Positions 32,988 to 40,669 of a DNA stretch of 64,000 nt are shown here, in pieces. Numbering within the stretch: the first letter of the stretch is position 1; each line of letters starts with the position of its first letter. Both the position numbers and the translations under genes were made by a program. The notes under the pieces were generated by a model, which saw nothing but the letters and a program-made list of their open reading frames with translations, searched no databases and was not told the DNA's origin. Source of the DNA: an archaeon (GTDB lineage: Archaea > Nanobdellota > Nanobdellia > SCGC-AAA011-G17 > GW2011-AR17); the NCBI GenBank assembly GCA_043825775.1, contig JBDRRK010000012.1, forward strand, positions 1,237 to 65,236, in the 5' to 3' direction.

Positions 32988-34220
32988 ATGGCAGAAGATG
33001 ATATCTATAAAAGTAAGCAAAAATATGAAACTGTTGTTAATGGTTTTGATAGCTTAATAGAGAAACCAACTGGTAAAAGTAAATATTTTTGTAAGAATAA
33101 AAAGAATATAAAATATTTTAAGGGGTTGGTTAAATATTTTGATTTGAAAGATTTAAGTTATATTAGAAGACGTAAGGTTTTGTACATTATGAGATTAATT
33201 ACTTTTGTGATTAAAAAAGATTTGAAAGATTGTGAAAGAGAAGATGTTAATGAATTGGTTGCTTTTGGTCATGAAAGGTTTAAGACAATAACAAGTAAAA
33301 AAGATTTTATCAAGGATGTAAAAGTAATTTGGAGAGTTCTTTTTCCTGAAAAAGATAATAAGGGAAGAATAGATGAAACCTTAACTCCTTATGCAGTAAG
33401 GCATTTGTCTAATAAAATAGATAAAAGTAAAGAGAAATTAAGGAATGATAGGATTTCTTTAGAAGAGTTTGAAGCGATTGTTAAATTCTATGATAATGAT
33501 CCTAAAATGCAGGCTTATTTGACTCTTGCTTTTGAAAGTTTGGGTAGACCTCAGGAAATTCTTTATACTAAAATAAAAGATTATGAATTTTATGATAACT
33601 ATGCGAGGATTTGGATATCTGAACATGGGAAAGAAGGATGTGGTTTTTTACAATGTATTGATAGTCTGCCTTATGTTTTGAATTGGTATAGGAATCATCC
33701 TTTGAAAGGTGATAAAGATGCATTCTTTTTTATTAGTGAGAACAATAGGGCTAAGTATGGGCAGTTGAAAAACCATAATATCAATCAAAGATTAAAACAT
33801 GCTTGTAAGGTTTTAGGTATTGATAAGAATATAACTTGTTATTCTTTGAAAAGAAATGGTATTACTCATAGAAGAATAAGAGGAGATTCTGATACAGAGA
33901 TACAGCATGCTGCCAGATGGACTTCTACAAGGCAGTTGAAGATATATGATATGAGTACTCAAGAAGATGCCTTGAAAATTGCTTTGAAGAAAAGAGGGTT
34001 TGTAGAGAAAGAGTCTAATGTAAATACTGAAAGTAAAAAGTGTGTGTTTTGTGGTCAAGATAATGGGTTTTCAGAAGAGTTTTGCTCTGTTTGTAAAAGA
34101 CCTTTAGATAGGGATAAGTTAAGGGAACAGGCACAGATGCACGAAAGGTTGATGCAGAACAATATTGTCCAGAAATTAGATAAAATGGAGCAGATGTTTG
34201 GGAAGATGAAAAAGATGTAA
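32988..34220 (+). CDS. Tyrosine-type site-specific integrase (with C-terminal zinc ribbon)
   Basis: Box I-like 'ESLGRPQEI'; C-terminal catalytic region '…ITHRR…QHAARWTSTRQLKIYD' with H/W/Y spacing typical of Xer/integrase family; 'CVFCGQ…CSVCKRP' zinc ribbon. Confidence 0.7.
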   Translation: MAEDDIYKSKQKYETVVNGFDSLIEKPTGKSKYFCKNKKNIKYFKGLVKYFDLKDLSYIRRRKVLYIMRLITFVIKKDLKDCEREDVNELVAFGHERFKTITSKKDFIKDVKVIWRVLFPEKDNKGRIDETLTPYAVRHLSNKIDKSKEKLRNDRISLEEFEAIVKFYDNDPKMQAYLTLAFESLGRPQEILYTKIKDYEFYDNYARIWISEHGKEGCGFLQCIDSLPYVLNWYRNHPLKGDKDAFFFISENNRAKYGQLKNHNINQRLKHACKVLGIDKNITCYSLKRNGITHRRIRGDSDTEIQHAARWTSTRQLKIYDMSTQEDALKIALKKRGFVEKESNVNTESKKCVFCGQDNGFSEEFCSVCKRPLDRDKLREQAQMHERLMQNNIVQKLDKMEQMFGKMKKM

Positions 34221-34280: not shown

Positions 34281-34424
34281 ATGAAACAGAAATTAAGCAT
34301 AACTATCGAGGAAGAAACTATAAAAAAATTAGAACAATTCATCCAAACTGGTAAATTTAGAAATAAATCACACTTAATAGAATATAGTCTTAATGAATTT
34401 TTGAGAGGAGAAAAAAATGAGTGA
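34281..34424 (+). CDS. Ribbon-helix-helix (CopG/Arc-like) small DNA-binding protein
   Basis: 47 aa 'MKQKLSITIEEETIKKLEQFIQTGKFRNKSHLIEYSLNEFL' fits the RHH pattern (beta-strand 'ITIEEE' then two helices). Not in the ORF track because it is under 60 aa; overlaps the next start. Confidence 0.5.
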   Translation: MKQKLSITIEEETIKKLEQFIQTGKFRNKSHLIEYSLNEFLRGEKNE

Positions 34425-35784
34425 ATTAACCTATGATGAATTAGTATTTCCAAATTATGTAAATAGTAATACTGCAGTTCGATTGAGAGCTAATATTGAT
34501 GGAAGATTACAAACATTAGAGTTAAGTGTTTGTGATATGGCTTATGCAATTGAACTTGCTGGTTTGAATAGTTTATGGTTATCTGATACTGGAAGAGGTA
34601 AAACTCAGTTAATGTCTGATATTGCTTGGCATCATTTTGGTGGTGACCAAGAAGAAGGTGATGCTAACTGGGCTGATGGAAGACCAAGTTTTGATATTAC
34701 TGATTTGTTTGAAAGAACTCAAGTTGATTTAGAATCAGGAAAGTTTGATAGTGATACTGCTCGTCAAGTTAAGGCAAACAGAATTAGAAGAATGTTTTTT
34801 GGAGTTGATGAAATTAATCGTGCTCCTAATCCAAGACAGAACGAATTTTTTGATTTAGCTGATGGTAAATATACTTTTAATGGGAGGAGACTGGATTTAG
34901 GTAAAGAAGGTTATGCTATTTTTATGGCTACTGCCAACTTAAACAAAATGAATGGTGATTTCTCTGGAACTTTTGAATTAGATAGAGCTCTTTTGAACAG
35001 AGCCCATGTAACTATAGATTTAGATCATCCTGATTTCAGACCTACTGTTGAGGATGAAATGCTTATTGAAGAGGGGAAAGCTAATCCAAAAGTAGATATT
35101 GCTCCTGCTCAAAATTTAAGTGGTAAAATCTTAACAGCAAATAAAGAAATAATGGCTACAGCTAGACAACTGAATCCTTATTTTACTGCTTTTAGATTTT
35201 TGATAGGAAGAGGATTAGATTATTGTGCTACAGATAAATATGATGAAAAAGGATCAAATTTTCCAATGCTCTGTGCTGAATGTGATGACACAGGTAAAGA
35301 TCTTTGTTCTAGGGTTAAAGGTTCTTCAGAAAGAACCTTACCTGCAGTAAAGAGTTTAGCTTATGCTTTGTCATATATTGCAAAATTGAAAACTGGAAAA
35401 GAAGTTGAAATTGATCCATTAGATGCTACTTTGCAGGCATTTAGATTTACTACATATCATGGTAATTTAAATGAGCTTATGGCTGAAGACCAATATGCAA
35501 TGAGAAAACAGATTATGATGGATGAAACAGTTGAAAAGTTATCTGGTGTTGTTGATGTTTTACGTCCTTATTTGCCAATTATGATAGATGGTGGGGAACC
35601 AGTTATTGTTAGTTACCAATTTAAAGGTGAACAATTTGATGGTCCAAAAACAGATAAAACAATTAGTACATTAAGAAAAGCAGGGATTTCATATCAGGAA
35701 AAGGGACTCAAAGCTGAATTAAAAGAACAAGGTCTTGGTACTGACTGGATTGACCCTTATGTTAAATCTATGAGGAAAAAATGA
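34417..35784 (+). CDS. MoxR-family AAA+ ATPase
   Basis: Walker A-like 'SDTGRGKTQL'; Walker B 'FFGVDEINRAPNPRQNEFFDLADG'; sensor-1 region 'FMATANLNKMNGDFSGTFELDRALLNRA'; these match MoxR 'DEINRAxPKTQSALLE…ATQNP…GTYPLPEAQLDRF'. Confidence 0.75.
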   Translation: MSELTYDELVFPNYVNSNTAVRLRANIDGRLQTLELSVCDMAYAIELAGLNSLWLSDTGRGKTQLMSDIAWHHFGGDQEEGDANWADGRPSFDITDLFERTQVDLESGKFDSDTARQVKANRIRRMFFGVDEINRAPNPRQNEFFDLADGKYTFNGRRLDLGKEGYAIFMATANLNKMNGDFSGTFELDRALLNRAHVTIDLDHPDFRPTVEDEMLIEEGKANPKVDIAPAQNLSGKILTANKEIMATARQLNPYFTAFRFLIGRGLDYCATDKYDEKGSNFPMLCAECDDTGKDLCSRVKGSSERTLPAVKSLAYALSYIAKLKTGKEVEIDPLDATLQAFRFTTYHGNLNELMAEDQYAMRKQIMMDETVEKLSGVVDVLRPYLPIMIDGGEPVIVSYQFKGEQFDGPKTDKTISTLRKAGISYQEKGLKAELKEQGLGTDWIDPYVKSMRKK

Positions 35785-36551
35785 CTAACACACTAAAACC
35801 ACTGAACTTAGGAAGAAGAATACTAACAGAAGAGGAAGTTTTAGAGCAGTTAGCGGGTTATCAACCAACTAATCCTAGACAAGAACTTGAACCAACTCCT
35901 CAACCACAACCAACACCGGAGCCAGAACAAGAAGCAGATATAATTCCTCAAGACTATATACTATTAGAAGGAACAAATAACTATCAAGATACATTTATTT
36001 CAACTACAAGAACACACCAAGGAAATAATTGGAATAAAACCCAAGAGCTTTTACATGCACGAGATCTCTATATGCCTACTATTAAGCAATTTGTTGATTT
36101 TCTTAAATTACTGAGAAGTGGAACAGCTTTTAATGGAAATGGAGATAACATTCCATCTTCACAACTGGATGCAATATACAAGGACATAACTGAAGTGAAA
36201 GACCCATGGAGAGCAGAATGGTTGGATGCTAAATTTGAAGGTAACCTTATTCATTATCATCATAGAACCAGGCAGGGAAGTTTACAATCTGTAGTTTCAG
36301 AAGGACTAGTTCCATATTTAAGACAGGACAAGACCCCCGGTATTGATTTAGAATACTGGATAAACAATTCCACTTCACAAGGTTTACCTTTGGATAATAC
36401 TCTAAATGGGAATTTATATTATTGGCATCCAAGAGATGGTGCTGTCGCGAGGTTCAGTGCGAATTCGGATAGGGCTTACCTTATTTGTAGCAGGTACCCT
36501 TGGAGCTCGAATTCCTCTCTCGGGGTACGTCCTTGCGCGCGAAAAAATTAA
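35781..36551 (+). CDS. DGR target protein 1 (C-terminal variable C-type-lectin/FGE-like fold ending '…SLGVRPCARKN')
   Basis: The 3' end contains VR1, which is homologous to the TR with adenine-specific mismatches; paralog of 38375-39166; start overlaps the MoxR stop. Confidence 0.8.
   Translation: MTNTLKPLNLGRRILTEEEVLEQLAGYQPTNPRQELEPTPQPQPTPEPEQEADIIPQDYILLEGTNNYQDTFISTTRTHQGNNWNKTQELLHARDLYMPTIKQFVDFLKLLRSGTAFNGNGDNIPSSQLDAIYKDITEVKDPWRAEWLDAKFEGNLIHYHHRTRQGSLQSVVSEGLVPYLRQDKTPGIDLEYWINNSTSQGLPLDNTLNGNLYYWHPRDGAVARFSANSDRAYLICSRYPWSSNSSLGVRPCARKN
36442..36522 (+). repeat. DGR variable repeat VR1
   Basis: 81 nt aligned to the TR (39419-39519); 8 mismatches, all at TR adenines. Confidence 0.8.
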
Positions 36552-36569
36552 CGATCAATACAAGAAAAA

Positions 36570-38378
36570 ATGGATACAAACCAAGTAACAGAAGAAATCA
36601 AGGCAAGAGAAACTGCAAGATTTAACTATAAAGGAAAGGTTTTAGTTAGAGAGTTATCTAGAGAACCTTGTTTTTCTGGCAGTATTGATATGCTTACTAC
36701 TGCAAAAATAGAGGTTGGTTATAATCCAGATTATCCAGAAGAAGCTCAACATTTAGAAGGAATTGTTACTGAACCTTTTGAAAGAGCAATGACTTCAGTT
36801 TTAAGACATGAGCTTAATCATAAAGGTGGAGGAGAATTTCAAGGATGCCCTAGAAATATTGATTTACATGCTGAAAATGTTCTTGAACCTGCAGCAGAAG
36901 TATTACAAAGTTTAGGTTTACCAAATGTCCCTGTTACTGAAAATCAAACTCTTTATGCTTACATGGCTAACTTAATAGAAGATGTTTTTGACAATGCAGA
37001 ATTAGGCAATAATTCTGACCATGTTGGTATGTTTCTAGCTTACAAAGATGATGCTCAACATCTACCTGATGATATGGAAGGGAAACTCTCACCTCTATTT
37101 GATGCTTTTGTTCAATTGCAACAAAAATTATATGGTGGGAGAGCAAGCAGAAAATTATTAGCTGAACATTATTCTGATGATAATAGAGTTCAAACTGCAA
37201 TTGATAATTTTATGCAAAGGTCTGGTTTGACTGATATGACGAGAGAAGTCACAACTAGAAGAAGAAAAGAGAGAGTTGAAATATTTGATAGAAAAGAAGC
37301 AGTTCAATATTTGATGGATGAAAACAATTGGCCAGAATTGTCAAAAATCTTAACAGAAGAATTTGCTGAATTGATTGATAAAAATAAATTACAACAACCA
37401 GATTATGTTAAAGGAACTTTCATACCTCTAAAAGGTGAGGCTGATGGATTTTCTGATGAAATGGATGATAAAGAGACTAAAATGAGATTAGTTTGGAAAA
37501 AATATGTTGAAGGAAAGGGAAAAGAATCAAGTCCTGCTTTCCAACCTCCTGCTTATTTAGAAAGTTTTGAAGCTTTGGATTTAGTCTATCAAAGATTAGC
37601 AAGAAATTTAGAAATCAAAACAAAAGCTTCCACAAGAACTGCAAGTATGCCTGTAATGCACTATGGAAAGAGAAAGTTTGACCCAAGAAGAGATAAATTA
37701 TCAAAAGCCAGAATTGGTTTTGGCAGAAAAGGAAAATTAGAGTTAAGTGTAGGAAGATTTCATGAGGATTATCCAGTTGAATATACTGAAAGAATGAGAA
37801 GTCTGCCAGAAATAAAGTTTGTTATGATGGATACCTCTGGAAGTATGTCTCATCCTGTAGAAGGAAGTGATACTGGTAAAGTCATGAATCCTTGGGCAGA
37901 TGAAAGAAGACAATGGGGAGATAATAGCAGATATCATCATGCGTTAGTTGCTTGGTATGGTTTGTTAGGATTATTAAGAAAACAAGGAACATTAAAACAT
38001 AAATCAGTCAAATTAGCTAATTATTCAAGTTCTACTCAAACAGCTTCTGATTTAAGAGATGCTAAAAAATTGGCTTTAACACCTCAGTTCGGAGGTACAG
38101 AGTTAGATTTAGACACTATTGATGATATGTTTGGAAGAGACCAGTTGATATTCTCTTTATCAGATGGAGATGTTGATAACTGGAATCGAATTAAAGATGA
38201 ATATATCCAAAGAGCCAAACAAAATCATTATTTTCATTTGCAAATTGGTGGAGAAACAGCAATGTCACGAGATTTAGAATCTGCAGGTTTGGTAGTTAAA
38301 TATGATGATGGTAAGAATTTAGGTAAAATGGTTATTGATTTAACAAGACCATATATTACTAGGATGGAGAAAAAATGA
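36570..38378 (+). CDS. VWA-domain protein with MIDAS motif (MoxR partner)
   Basis: C-terminal half: 'KFVMMDTSGSMS' (DxSxS MIDAS) and downstream 'IFSLSDGDVDNW'; follows the MoxR gene pattern. Confidence 0.75.
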   Translation: MDTNQVTEEIKARETARFNYKGKVLVRELSREPCFSGSIDMLTTAKIEVGYNPDYPEEAQHLEGIVTEPFERAMTSVLRHELNHKGGGEFQGCPRNIDLHAENVLEPAAEVLQSLGLPNVPVTENQTLYAYMANLIEDVFDNAELGNNSDHVGMFLAYKDDAQHLPDDMEGKLSPLFDAFVQLQQKLYGGRASRKLLAEHYSDDNRVQTAIDNFMQRSGLTDMTREVTTRRRKERVEIFDRKEAVQYLMDENNWPELSKILTEEFAELIDKNKLQQPDYVKGTFIPLKGEADGFSDEMDDKETKMRLVWKKYVEGKGKESSPAFQPPAYLESFEALDLVYQRLARNLEIKTKASTRTASMPVMHYGKRKFDPRRDKLSKARIGFGRKGKLELSVGRFHEDYPVEYTERMRSLPEIKFVMMDTSGSMSHPVEGSDTGKVMNPWADERRQWGDNSRYHHALVAWYGLLGLLRKQGTLKHKSVKLANYSSSTQTASDLRDAKKLALTPQFGGTELDLDTIDDMFGRDQLIFSLSDGDVDNWNRIKDEYIQRAKQNHYFHLQIGGETAMSRDLESAGLVVKYDDGKNLGKMVIDLTRPYITRMEKK

Positions 38379-39166
38379 CTAACACACTAAAACCCCTGAA
38401 CTTAGGAAGAAGAATACTAACAGAAGAGGAAGTTTTAGAGCAGTTAGCAGGTTATCAACCAACTAATCCTAGACAAGAACCTGAACCAACACCTCAACCA
38501 CAACCAACACGGGAACCAGAACAAGAAGCAGATATAATTCCTCAAGATTATATTCTATTAGAATCTACTGGTAATTATCCAGATACTCACATTTCAACTA
38601 CAAGGATACACCAAGGAAATAATTGGTTTCAAGCACATGAAGAGCTACACAAAGAAGGATTGTATATGCCTACATTAAGACAGTTTGTAGATTTCTTAAA
38701 GTTATTAAAAGGAGGAAAGGCATTTAATGGCCAAGGAAATAAAATTCCAAAAAACCAATTGGAACAAATACTGAAAGAAATAATTGAAGTAAGAGCTCCT
38801 GGTAGAGCAGAGTGGCTTGATGCTGATTTTAAGGTAAAGAGTGATATTTTACATATAAATTACAATCATAGAACTGTTGGTGGACAATTACAACCAAATC
38901 AGTCAGAAGTTTTACAACCTTATTTGGATCAAAATAAAACTCCGGGAATTGGTTTAGAGTATTGGTTAAACAATGCAACATCAAGACATGGTCTGCCACC
39001 AGCAAATACTTCAGATGGAAGTTTATATTACTGGGCTCCAATGTCTGACAATAATTCTGTCGCGAGGTTCGATGCGTATTCGGGTAGGGCTAGCCTTAGT
39101 TGTGACGGGAACCCTAGGGACTCGAATTCCTCTCTCGGGGTACGTCCTTGCGCGCGAAAAAATTAA
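38375..39166 (+). CDS. DGR target protein 2 (paralog of target 1)
   Basis: Same N-terminal 60 aa and same C-terminal '…SNSSLGVRPCARKN' as target 1; contains VR2; start overlaps the VWA stop. Confidence 0.8.
   Translation: MTNTLKPLNLGRRILTEEEVLEQLAGYQPTNPRQEPEPTPQPQPTREPEQEADIIPQDYILLESTGNYPDTHISTTRIHQGNNWFQAHEELHKEGLYMPTLRQFVDFLKLLKGGKAFNGQGNKIPKNQLEQILKEIIEVRAPGRAEWLDADFKVKSDILHINYNHRTVGGQLQPNQSEVLQPYLDQNKTPGIGLEYWLNNATSRHGLPPANTSDGSLYYWAPMSDNNSVARFDAYSGRASLSCDGNPRDSNSSLGVRPCARKN
39057..39138 (+). repeat. DGR variable repeat VR2
   Basis: Aligned to the TR; 9 mismatches, all at TR adenines. Confidence 0.8.
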
Positions 39167-39418
39167 CTATCAATACAAGACATAAAAATATAAAAACTAT
39201 GATTTTCTTAATTCCTTGTCTTAGAGACATTATCTTGAGTATTTCCACATCCTAAGGAAATGCAATGAAGGATAATCGCAAGGGCTACATGTAGATTCAT
39301 TAGTGCATTTTCAAAATGTCATAAAATTCAATAATGATAGATAGTAATAATGACAAACCTTGGGAAAGTTTAGAGTGAAACCTAAAATTATGGTGCTTTT
39401 ACAATGAGTTTGCTAAAT

Positions 39419-39519
39419 CTGTCGCGAGGTTCAATGCGAATTCGGATAGGGCTAACCTTAATTGTAACAGGAACCCTAGGAACTCGAAATCTTTTTTAAG
39501 ACGAGATTTCCTCTCTCGG
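39419..39519 (+). repeat. DGR template repeat (TR) with embedded hairpin (39486-39510), immediately upstream of the RT
   Basis: A-rich copy 'ctgtcgcgaggttcaatgcgaattcggatagggctaaccttaattgtaacaggaaccctaggaactcgaaat…cctctctcgg'. It translates to N-A-N-S-D-R-A-N-L-N-C-N-R-N-P-R-N-S (AAC/AAT codons). It lies in non-coding DNA 24 nt upstream of the RT start. Confidence 0.8.
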
Positions 39520-39542
39520 AATAACCTTTGTTATCTAAGACA

Positions 39543-40669
39543 ATGAAAACTTGCAAAAACTTATATTCAAAACTATATTCAATAGACAACCTAAAATTAG
39601 CATTCACAAAAGCTAGAAAAGGAAAAACACTTAGACTAGAGGTAATCAAATTTGAAAAGAATCTTAATAGGGAATTACCTCAACTAAAGAATGAATTAAA
39701 GTTTTTAACTTATAAACCTAAACCTCTAGTAAACTTTATTATTAGGGATCCTAAAATCAGAAAAATAAGCAAATCTCATTTTAGAGATAGAGTTGTCCAT
39801 CATGCACTTTGCAACCTAATAACTCCCATCTTTGAAAAAACATTTATCTTGGATTCTTATGCAAATCAAATAGATAAAGGAACATTAGCTGCTATTCAAA
39901 GATTTGATTATTTCAAGAGAAAAGTAACCAAAAACAATACAAAAAATGCTTATGTTTTCAAGGCAGACATAAGAAAATATTTTGAATCGATAAATCATGA
40001 GATTCTAACAAACACTATAAAAAAGAAAATAAAAGATAGAAGAATAATCTGGTTAATACAAATCATCCTCAACAATTCAACTGGGGGGGGGGCGAACAGA
40101 AAAAGGGCAACATAAATCAAAGATTTCTTTCCTCATATATTCAGAAGGGAATGCCTTTGGGAAACTTAACATCCCAATTCTTTGCAAACCTTTATCTCAA
40201 TGAATTGGATTATTTTGTAAAACGCAAACTAAAAATAAAATATTACATTCGTTATGTTGATGATTTCATAATCTTTCACAATTCAAAAGAAAAACTTGAA
40301 TTTTACAAGGAAGAGATAGGTTCTTTTCTAACGAGTAAATTAGATATAGAATTACATCCAGATAAATCAAGAATATTTCCTATTCACCGAGGAACAAACT
40401 TTCTTGGATTTAAAATATTCCCTTATCATAGGATTATAAAAAACCAAAATCTAAGGAGATTTAAAGGTAAATTAAAACAACTTGAAAAACAATACAGACA
40501 AGGGGGTATAAGTTATGATGAACTATATGATTCCTTGGAAGGCTGGCTTGCTTATGCTAAAAATGCTAATACTTACAAATTGAGAAAGGAGATTTTAGAA
40601 CAAGTAGAAACTCTGTTTTCGAAAGAGGTTTCAAGTAAAGAGATAAATAGATATCAAAAATATAACTAA
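39543..40669 (+). CDS. Diversity-generating retroelement reverse transcriptase (frameshifted in a G10 tract; two ORF fragments 39528-40115 and 40151-40669)
   Basis: RT motif 2 'FKADIRKYFESINHE'; DGR-specific motif 4 'GMPLGNLTSQFFANLYLNELD' (SQ replacing QG); motif 5 'YVDDFIIF'. A homopolymer at 40083-40092 interrupts the frame; an 11-G version reads through. Confidence 0.85.
40083..40092 (+). repeat. G10 homopolymer causing the RT frameshift
   Basis: 'aactggggggggggcgaac'; frame 1 stops 20 nt downstream; the +2 frame is open across the tract and into ORF2. Confidence 0.7.

Follow-up and report, generated by a model that had tools for sequence, protein, structure and literature searches.

Diversity-generating retroelements (DGRs) pick their targets by the sequence right after the variable repeat (VR), as established for the Bordetella phage element. 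We analysed one such element in a 64,000-nucleotide stretch of DNA, hereafter the window, from a DPANN-type small archaeon (contig JBDRRK010000012.1, positions 1,237 to 65,236). It has two target genes, T1 (35781..36551, 256 aa) and T2 (38375..39166, 263 aa, 71% identical to T1 overall), which lie on the forward strand with all the other genes of the locus, in the order ATPase-like gene, T1, a gene for an HExxH and VWA protein, T2, RT-16 RNA, template repeat (TR) and reverse transcriptase (RT). The closest described systems are the multi-target DGRs with C-type lectin (CLec) targets, represented by Mtd of the Bordetella phage, TvpA of Treponema, TaqVP of Thermus and the nanoarchaeal AvpA. As in those systems, the changes between TR and VR are confined to adenines, the VR is C-terminal within a predicted CLec fold, a GC-rich conserved sequence follows it, and the RT gene lies downstream. 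Unlike them, the window's element has no strong hairpin after the VR, its targets carry an extra N-terminal helix and linker, and they are interleaved with the ATPase and VWA genes. The portions of Handa 2016 (PMC5006420) drawn on here describe an archaeal CLec fold in which one strand is encoded by the sequence for initiation of mutagenic homing (IMH).

The second point of comparison is the MoxR-vWA "ternary" conflict systems, which have been tied to DGRs in multicellular bacteria (Kaur 2020, PMC7159879; Dore 2024, PMC10907252). As far as the portions of these two papers drawn on here go, a MoxR-like ATPase and a vWA protein are encoded together with DGR-diversified lectin-type domains, and the components are linked by variable N-terminal extensions and adaptor modules; the present locus may resemble them in both respects. 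It differs in that in the bacteria the lectin domain and the vWA protein mostly form one fusion, accompanied by a VMAP or effector protein, whereas the window has separate small lectin genes in a DPANN host. No VMAP or effector is evident among the window's open reading frames (ORFs), the profile libraries used having no VMAP-C profile. The same portions of Dore 2024 describe the clade 5F DGRs from candidate phyla radiation (CPR) bacteria and DPANN as being without conflict-system domains.

T1 and T2 form a three-zone mosaic. The original prediction, made from the letters of the window, had described near-identical 5' ends of about 260 nt with a few nucleotide differences, diverged middles and identical 3' flanks, and had named pairwise nucleotide alignment as the check. 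Alignment and counts bear out the three zones, and divergence is not uniform along the genes. The 5' likeness is real, but its predicted extent and mismatch count do not stand. Between 35771-36032 and 38365-38626 there are 24 mismatches in 262 nt (90.8% identity), and near-identity covers only about 190 nt. The match is best over 35781-35951, with 6 mismatches in 171 nt (96.5%), and is down to 79% over 35966-36032, where 14 of 67 nt differ. A maximum chi-squared scan places the breakpoint at 35970, with 8 mismatches in 189 nt before it against 163 in 472 nt after it; none of 2000 permutations reached the observed value. We therefore delimit the tract as 35773..35969 in its first copy, which comprises about 8 nt upstream and T1 codons 1 to about 63, and as 38367..38563 in its second, in the same register at an offset of 2594. 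About 10 nt of upstream sequence had been included in the predicted block. Likeness does reach upstream, from about 8 nt before the ATG, but 35771-35780 has 2 mismatches in 10 nt, and 35760-35780 has 8 in 21. Because identity begins about 8 nt before the start codon, the two unrelated upstream genes both end in Lys-Lys-stop.

The middles are more alike than the roughly 50% amino-acid identity that had been estimated: from codon 85 to the VR, 80 of 137 residues agree (58%). The third zone is as predicted. The 40 nt from the VR to the stop codon are identical in the two genes, the 14 nt past the stop have a single mismatch, and the likeness is over in the next 35 nt, where 22 positions differ. 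Together these define the shared 3' flanks, at 36512..36565 and 39127..39180, which are GC-rich and IMH-like and extend past the stop codon. No further copy of the 5' module was found in the 941,988-base genome, where the next-best DNA match is 21 nt long (E 0.0098).

Synonymous divergence separates the zones sharply. Estimated between T1 and T2 with the Jukes-Cantor correction, dS is 0.11 over codons 1-57 (4 changes in 39.5 sites), 0.75 over codons 58-84 and about 2.0, which is saturated, from codon 85 to the VR. Where the residues agree, the same codon is used in 50 of 54 cases over codons 1-57 versus 40 of 76 in the middle (Fisher p = 7e-7). Protein-level selection cannot explain the 5' identity, given the low synonymous divergence and the shared codons.

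Relatives of the two genes point in the same direction. A word-indexed search with residues 1-60 showed the front end only in P0003 and P0004 besides T1 and T2 themselves (4 hits among 15 candidates). By their middles these form orthologue pairs, T1 with P0003 (81% identity) and T2 with P0004 (80%), against 57-63% across types. The protein quartet T1/T2/P0003/P0004 has 32 informative sites. Columns 4, 9, 18 and 28, all within residues 1-28, group T1 with T2 against P0003 with P0004; the other 28 sites, all from column 69 onward, group T1 with P0003 against T2 with P0004; and no site supports the third pattern. By our own arithmetic, the chance of all 4 sites preceding all 28 is 1 in 35,960. 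Within each lineage residues 1-28 are identical between the paralogues, and 4 of the 28 differ between lineages. It had been suggested that orthologous loci might show a conserved 5' module with varying middles. At the protein level, P0003 and P0004 do share the mosaic, but the module is not more conserved than the body between orthologues: T1 and P0003 are 83% identical over residues 1-30 versus 81% over the body, so module and body change at a similar pace between lineages. Since the module changes about as fast as the body between orthologues, selection alone does not explain why the paralogues are identical in it.

It is a general phenomenon that paralogues lying in tandem or close together evolve in concert through gene conversion. 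The two genes share its marks, namely a bounded tract of low dS inside which paralogues group by genome and outside which they group by orthology. They depart from the general case in that the tract coincides with a discrete protein module and starts where homology itself starts, inside the last codons of two unrelated upstream genes. Gene conversion had been among the explanations first proposed, and the roughly 20-fold contrast in dS across a sharp breakpoint, together with the conflicting groupings with orthologues, speaks for it. We take concerted evolution by gene conversion as the probable cause of the 5' near-identity, with the middle recording true, old divergence of paralogues, and put the probability that this is the best explanation as a whole at roughly three in four. 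T1 and T2 would be old paralogous targets of one DGR, the C-terminal VR of each being rewritten from a single TR. The 5' block, which starts about 8 nt ahead of the ATG and ends near codon 60, would be kept alike by repeated non-reciprocal recombination between direct copies 2.6 kb apart, and the retroelement would do the same for the 3' block, made up of the VR, the 40 nt that lead to the stop and some 14 nt past it.

Several points weigh against this explanation. The quartet comparison is at protein level only and turns on 4 sites. P0003 and P0004 lie on separate short contigs and may come from different genomes, though the incongruence holds either way. Among nine paralogue pairs from other loci, taken up below, three (G051, G041b and G036) have bodies as alike as the N-terminal module or more so, and of the 5 pairs from other loci in which the pattern is seen, only 3 have a codon-level contrast with p < 0.05. 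Finally, the window's RT lies in two frames, so present-day activity of the DGR is uncertain. Wider searches added little. Metagenome scans by protein patterns for orthologous DNA returned 593 stretches, none of them confirmed; a metagenome scan with a 23-nt IMH pattern gave 0 matches; and a scan of genome contigs for relatives' DNA found one distant locus only. A search for sequencing runs named no RNA run with the sequence; two RNA runs from the probable source's study contained next to no matching words, and one of them, X4, gave only short, unlike pieces. Among the papers searched, judged mainly by titles and the beginnings of abstracts, we found no account of conversion between paralogous DGR targets.

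The same two breakpoints are also what one would expect from a recent whole-gene duplication after which homologous recombination brought in a divergent middle that belonged to another strain or allele. Such an import would fit the patchiness of the relatives' cassettes, which show several alternating blocks in the related loci G044 and G051, and the tyrosine recombinase that lies just upstream. We consider it improbable, as it conflicts with the age of the duplication. Both middle types are already paired in another lineage, as P0003 and P0004, each 80-81% identical to its counterpart. Moreover, the arrangement of two targets around a VWA gene recurs in G044, where the order is 440 aa, target, 585 aa, target, RT, and where the 585-aa product belongs to the VWA family (hhalign 99%) although it is only 22% identical to the window's protein. 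The pairing in another lineage and the order in G044 thus make the duplication, and the two-target layout with it, old. In addition, the four sites fixed jointly in both paralogues need homogenisation after the split. Recombination could be dispensed with altogether if nucleotide-level selection acted on the 5' 190 nt, through mRNA structure, translational coupling or a regulatory target, in combination with strong constraint on the protein. The identity does set in at the ribosome-binding region, and the start of each gene overlaps the preceding stop codon by ATGA. Yet the predicted RNA fold of 35761-35960 is ordinary (z = -1.14, equalled by 26 of 200 shuffles), the linker, which is of low complexity, is predicted to be disordered, and a module under such constraint should not differ at 4 of 28 residues between lineages while staying identical within each. 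This account seems to us quite unlikely.

A short-read assembly might also have collapsed or cross-joined two repeats. In the probable source run, contigs end exactly at the borders of the repeats (35831, 35953, 36535, 38425 and 39150), as expected for repeats in any case, so that the breaks add nothing, and one of its contigs has the T2 letter at 35855 in a T1 context. We do not count the Logan contig with A at 35855 as evidence for a recombinant, since a popped assembly bubble could have produced it. Three observations leave an artefact very hard to credit: the window keeps six to eight copy-specific differences separate; contigs from a second groundwater study (runs X2 and X3) agree with 38253-38534 and 38367-38541 at every position; and P0003 and P0004 have the same design. 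As those independent contigs join the end of the VWA gene to the T2 module, the junction is not the product of one assembly.

At the 3' ends a different process is likely at work. VR1 (36442..36511) and VR2 (39057..39126) differ from the 70-nt TR (39419..39488, with 21 adenines) at 7 and 8 positions respectively, and every one of these 15 mismatches (7/7 and 8/8) falls at a TR adenine. The two VRs differ from each other at 14 of 70 positions and are alike because both are rewritten from a single TR; no third VR for this TR was found in the whole genome. After CTCGAA the 3' flank of the TR has a 19-nt hairpin-forming insert, then TTCCTCTCTCGG, then unrelated sequence. CTCGAA and TTCCTCTCTCGG are contiguous in both VR flanks and split by the insert at the TR (window 39478-39512). 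The hairpin of the insert is modest (DNA fold -8.1 kcal/mol, z = -1.16), and no strong hairpin or cruciform was found 3' of the VRs (z +2.0 and +1.5). Because the TR flank has only TTCCTCTCTCGG in common with the VR flanks, the latter differ from it in the manner expected of an IMH. Judged from these sequences, the 3' identity of T1 and T2 is a cis requirement of the DGR, and the GC-rich flank is its putative target-marking sequence.

In run X3, from the independent groundwater study, a low-depth contig over the VR2 region (39033-39244) has 11 differences from the window, and neighbouring contigs on T2 and the VWA gene have 0. This may be variation of VR2 between populations.

An RNA motif of the Rfam family RT-16 (39233..39421; 87.7 bits against a gathering score of 50) abuts the TR, and the RT gene follows at 39528..40669 as two ORFs in different frames, 39528-40115 and 40151-40669. 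RVT_1 matches both (E 9e-8 and 4e-10), and the halves are 49-57% identical to intact RTs beside homologous targets. The frame changes around a run of ten G (40083-40092); the G+C content of the genome is about 30%. Where an intact paralogous RT from the same genome has 3 nt, the window's gene has 46 (40105-40150). The break might reflect a sequencing error at the homopolymer, a gene that is dead, or slipped-strand switching between on and off states. A second RT of DGR type is encoded in this genome at L065 (G000:C8:96679-100302). It is intact at 417 aa and 66-69% identical to the two halves in the window, and its N-terminal extension, rich in Asn, resembles translated TR. A 271-aa gene lies just upstream of it. 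With this second RT, the genome has two DGRs.

The converted tract coincides with a boundary in the predicted protein. An AlphaFold2 model of T1, built with 58 homologues, has a mean pLDDT (the program's confidence score) of 89.6 and shows a helix at residues 17-25, a disordered linker at 26-54 and a globular CLec-fold domain at 55-256. In blocks of ten residues, pLDDT is 48-74 over residues 1-50 and at least 89 from residue 51. Against 48,161 solved chains, the first match of the model is a DGR variable protein, TaqVP (5vf4; Z 9.7, 182 residues aligned), followed by many C-type lectins at Z of at least 8, TvpA at Z 7.9 and Mtd at Z 7.5, and all structural matches are confined to residues 53-256. 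The lectin matches from Foldseek were weak, the best at E 0.013. Sequence methods were silent: Pfam left T1, T2, the ATPase and the VWA protein unmatched at E <= 0.01 and gave nothing useful at E <= 5, and a search of solved structures with a profile of the targets returned 2 matches at chance level. T1 and T2 are thus predicted, from the model, to be CLec-fold DGR variable proteins with a C-terminal VR. The tract encodes the part modelled outside the lectin fold, residues 1 to about 55, a short acidic helix with a disordered linker rich in Pro, Gln and Glu. No signal peptide or hydrophobic stretch is present in the translation.

The module is found on other bodies as well. We built a profile of it from T1, T2 and two relatives' loci and searched 1.84 billion representative sequences exhaustively. 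At E <= 0.001 it matched 11 proteins, the best stretch beginning at residue 1 or 2 in 10 of them. The bodies behind this "MTNxLKP" module fall into at least three classes that cannot be aligned with one another. P0167 and P0168 are 100% identical over residues 1-30 and 19% over the body, P0168 and P0171 97% and 35%, and T1 shares 53-57% of the front but 22-27% of the body with P0167-P0171. In two genomes of the same family, G020 and G021, MTNxLKP heads a different body of about 270 aa with a VR-like, Asn-rich C-terminus. These proteins adjoin ATPases 82% and 50% identical to the window's, respectively, and G021 also has a VWA protein 61% identical to the window's.

Other loci have shared modules of their own. 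These are MPYTEEEY in G044, SRLITGNRTAED in G051, IIGDKGKSxFDPDLA in G041, where the module stands on five genes between the ATPase and VWA genes, and MxRIIGDRKEKS in G028. At the last locus (L058, G028:C12, 690-3526) it heads both a lectin-type protein and a protein resembling leucine-rich repeats (LRRs), which flank an ATPase homologue. The LRR assignment is a weak one, as LRR_14 scores 30.5 bits (E 2e-7) and its cut-off is 40. Paralogues agree at 25 of the first 30 codons in G044, against 75% identity of the body; three pairs in G041 agree at 23-26 of 30 against 27-51%, and the G028 pair at 22 of 30 against 23%. The original prediction had also raised selection to keep an N-terminal module, and its presence on unrelated bodies, with separate shared modules elsewhere, upholds that idea. 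We infer that the module is a portable tag common to all variable proteins of a locus. G041 (L030, G041:C1, 4018-11545) has five genes that resemble targets. Four of these stand in tandem between the genes for the ATPase and the VWA protein, and by the sequence of the N-terminal module the five form two subgroups.

The two genes that precede the targets had been described as MoxR and VWA partners, a label that is borne out in part. The ATPase-like gene (34417..35784, 455 aa) ends over the start of T1, and its translation has a Walker-A-like GRGKT. Its ESM Atlas neighbours are AAA_5/MoxR proteins (score 0.99, 242 of 256 features). Beyond these language-model neighbours nothing identifies it as MoxR: Pfam offers AAA_3 at E 0.24 only, and no match was found among the sequences of solved structures. 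The second gene (36570..38378, 602 aa) ends over the start of T2. Pfam is silent here too, but the fold supports the VWA assignment. The AlphaFold2 model (pLDDT 87.8) has a C-terminal VWA domain with DTSGSM, and Foldseek aligns this domain with VWA domains at probability 1.00 (E 2e-3 to 2e-2), including NorD of NorQD (9qhd_G). Against the sequences of solved structures, the protein itself gave 1 match and the profile of its family 2, all at chance level. H80, E81 and H84 of the HExxH motif are invariant in 31 homologues, which suggests a metallopeptidase-like domain fused to a VWA domain. The N-terminal half of the family is helical, with a near-invariant GCPR beside the invariant HExxH, and no Pfam family matches it.

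What the module does can be approached through the company it keeps. Because it travels with the ATPase-like and HExxH-VWA proteins, its partner is probably one of these two. Either would recognise the module, and there would then be an advantage in conversion that holds the copies alike. The support for such docking is comparative only and consists in the co-occurrence of the module with homologous ATPases in three genomes of the family. Against it stands the failure of hhalign to find a copy of the module in the VWA family or the ATPase (probability 0.1%). In the portions of Kaur 2020 (PMC7159879) drawn on here, effector-associated domains (EADs) are likewise short N-terminal modules common to the proteins of a locus and swapped between C-terminal domains, but they stand on the core component too and make homotypic contacts. 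The window's module consists of about 25 residues and a linker, and since it is absent from the ATPase and VWA proteins, it is not a homotypic adaptor of the EAD kind.

The module could instead be a helix for homo- or hetero-oligomerisation, or an unconventional signal for export or processing. A short amphipathic acidic helix followed by a flexible linker would suit such a role, as would the lack of a signal peptide or hydrophobic stretch, and the invariant HExxH of the neighbouring protein could process the linker. We regard this as somewhat unlikely, as the module travels with the ATPase in G020, G021 and G028. Returning to the docking role, we tentatively propose, at less than even odds, that the front end of about 57 residues is an address tag that brings interchangeable binding domains to a MoxR-like ATPase/HExxH-VWA machine in DPANN archaea. 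The arrangement would be the archaeal equivalent, in split form, of the DGR-linked ternary conflict systems of bacteria. The interchangeable domains would comprise several lectin-type bodies diversified by DGRs and an LRR-like protein present in one relative. Gene conversion would keep the sensors compatible with one transducer and leave the bodies and VRs free to diverge.

The genome that holds the window comprises 941,988 bases in 17 contigs and is 96% complete. Archaeal 23S and 16S rRNA genes and an archaeal RNase P RNA are present in the window, and some homologues of its proteins are named "Candidatus Woesearchaeota" or "Nanoarchaeia" in their sources. The tyrosine recombinase gene (Phage_integrase, E 6.5e-8) occupies 32988-34220, directly upstream of the ATPase gene. 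In G020 a 270-aa ORF (L040, 2577-3389) stands upstream of the related cassette, and by eye its translation shows recombinase-like motifs. With recombinase-like genes adjoining it, the DGR/ATPase/VWA cassette may be mobile.

The mosaic itself is ordinary molecular evolution, and the identity of the 3' ends is what any DGR with two targets must have. What the locus adds, as read from the sequences compared here, is that the converted tract coincides with a portable N-terminal module which, in DPANN archaea, is linked to an ATPase/VWA pair. In ultra-small archaea, the variable proteins of DGRs are commonly regarded as surface binders that act alone. A front module that is identical between paralogues and exchanged among unrelated bodies would make the diversified domain one half of a two-part protein, the other half of which is partnered. 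The peptide of about 30 residues thereby offers a handle on how the variable proteins are used by the ATPase and HExxH-VWA proteins encoded beside them, and it bears on whether the DGRs of DPANN archaea feed an intracellular sensing machine like the bacterial MoxR-vWA systems.

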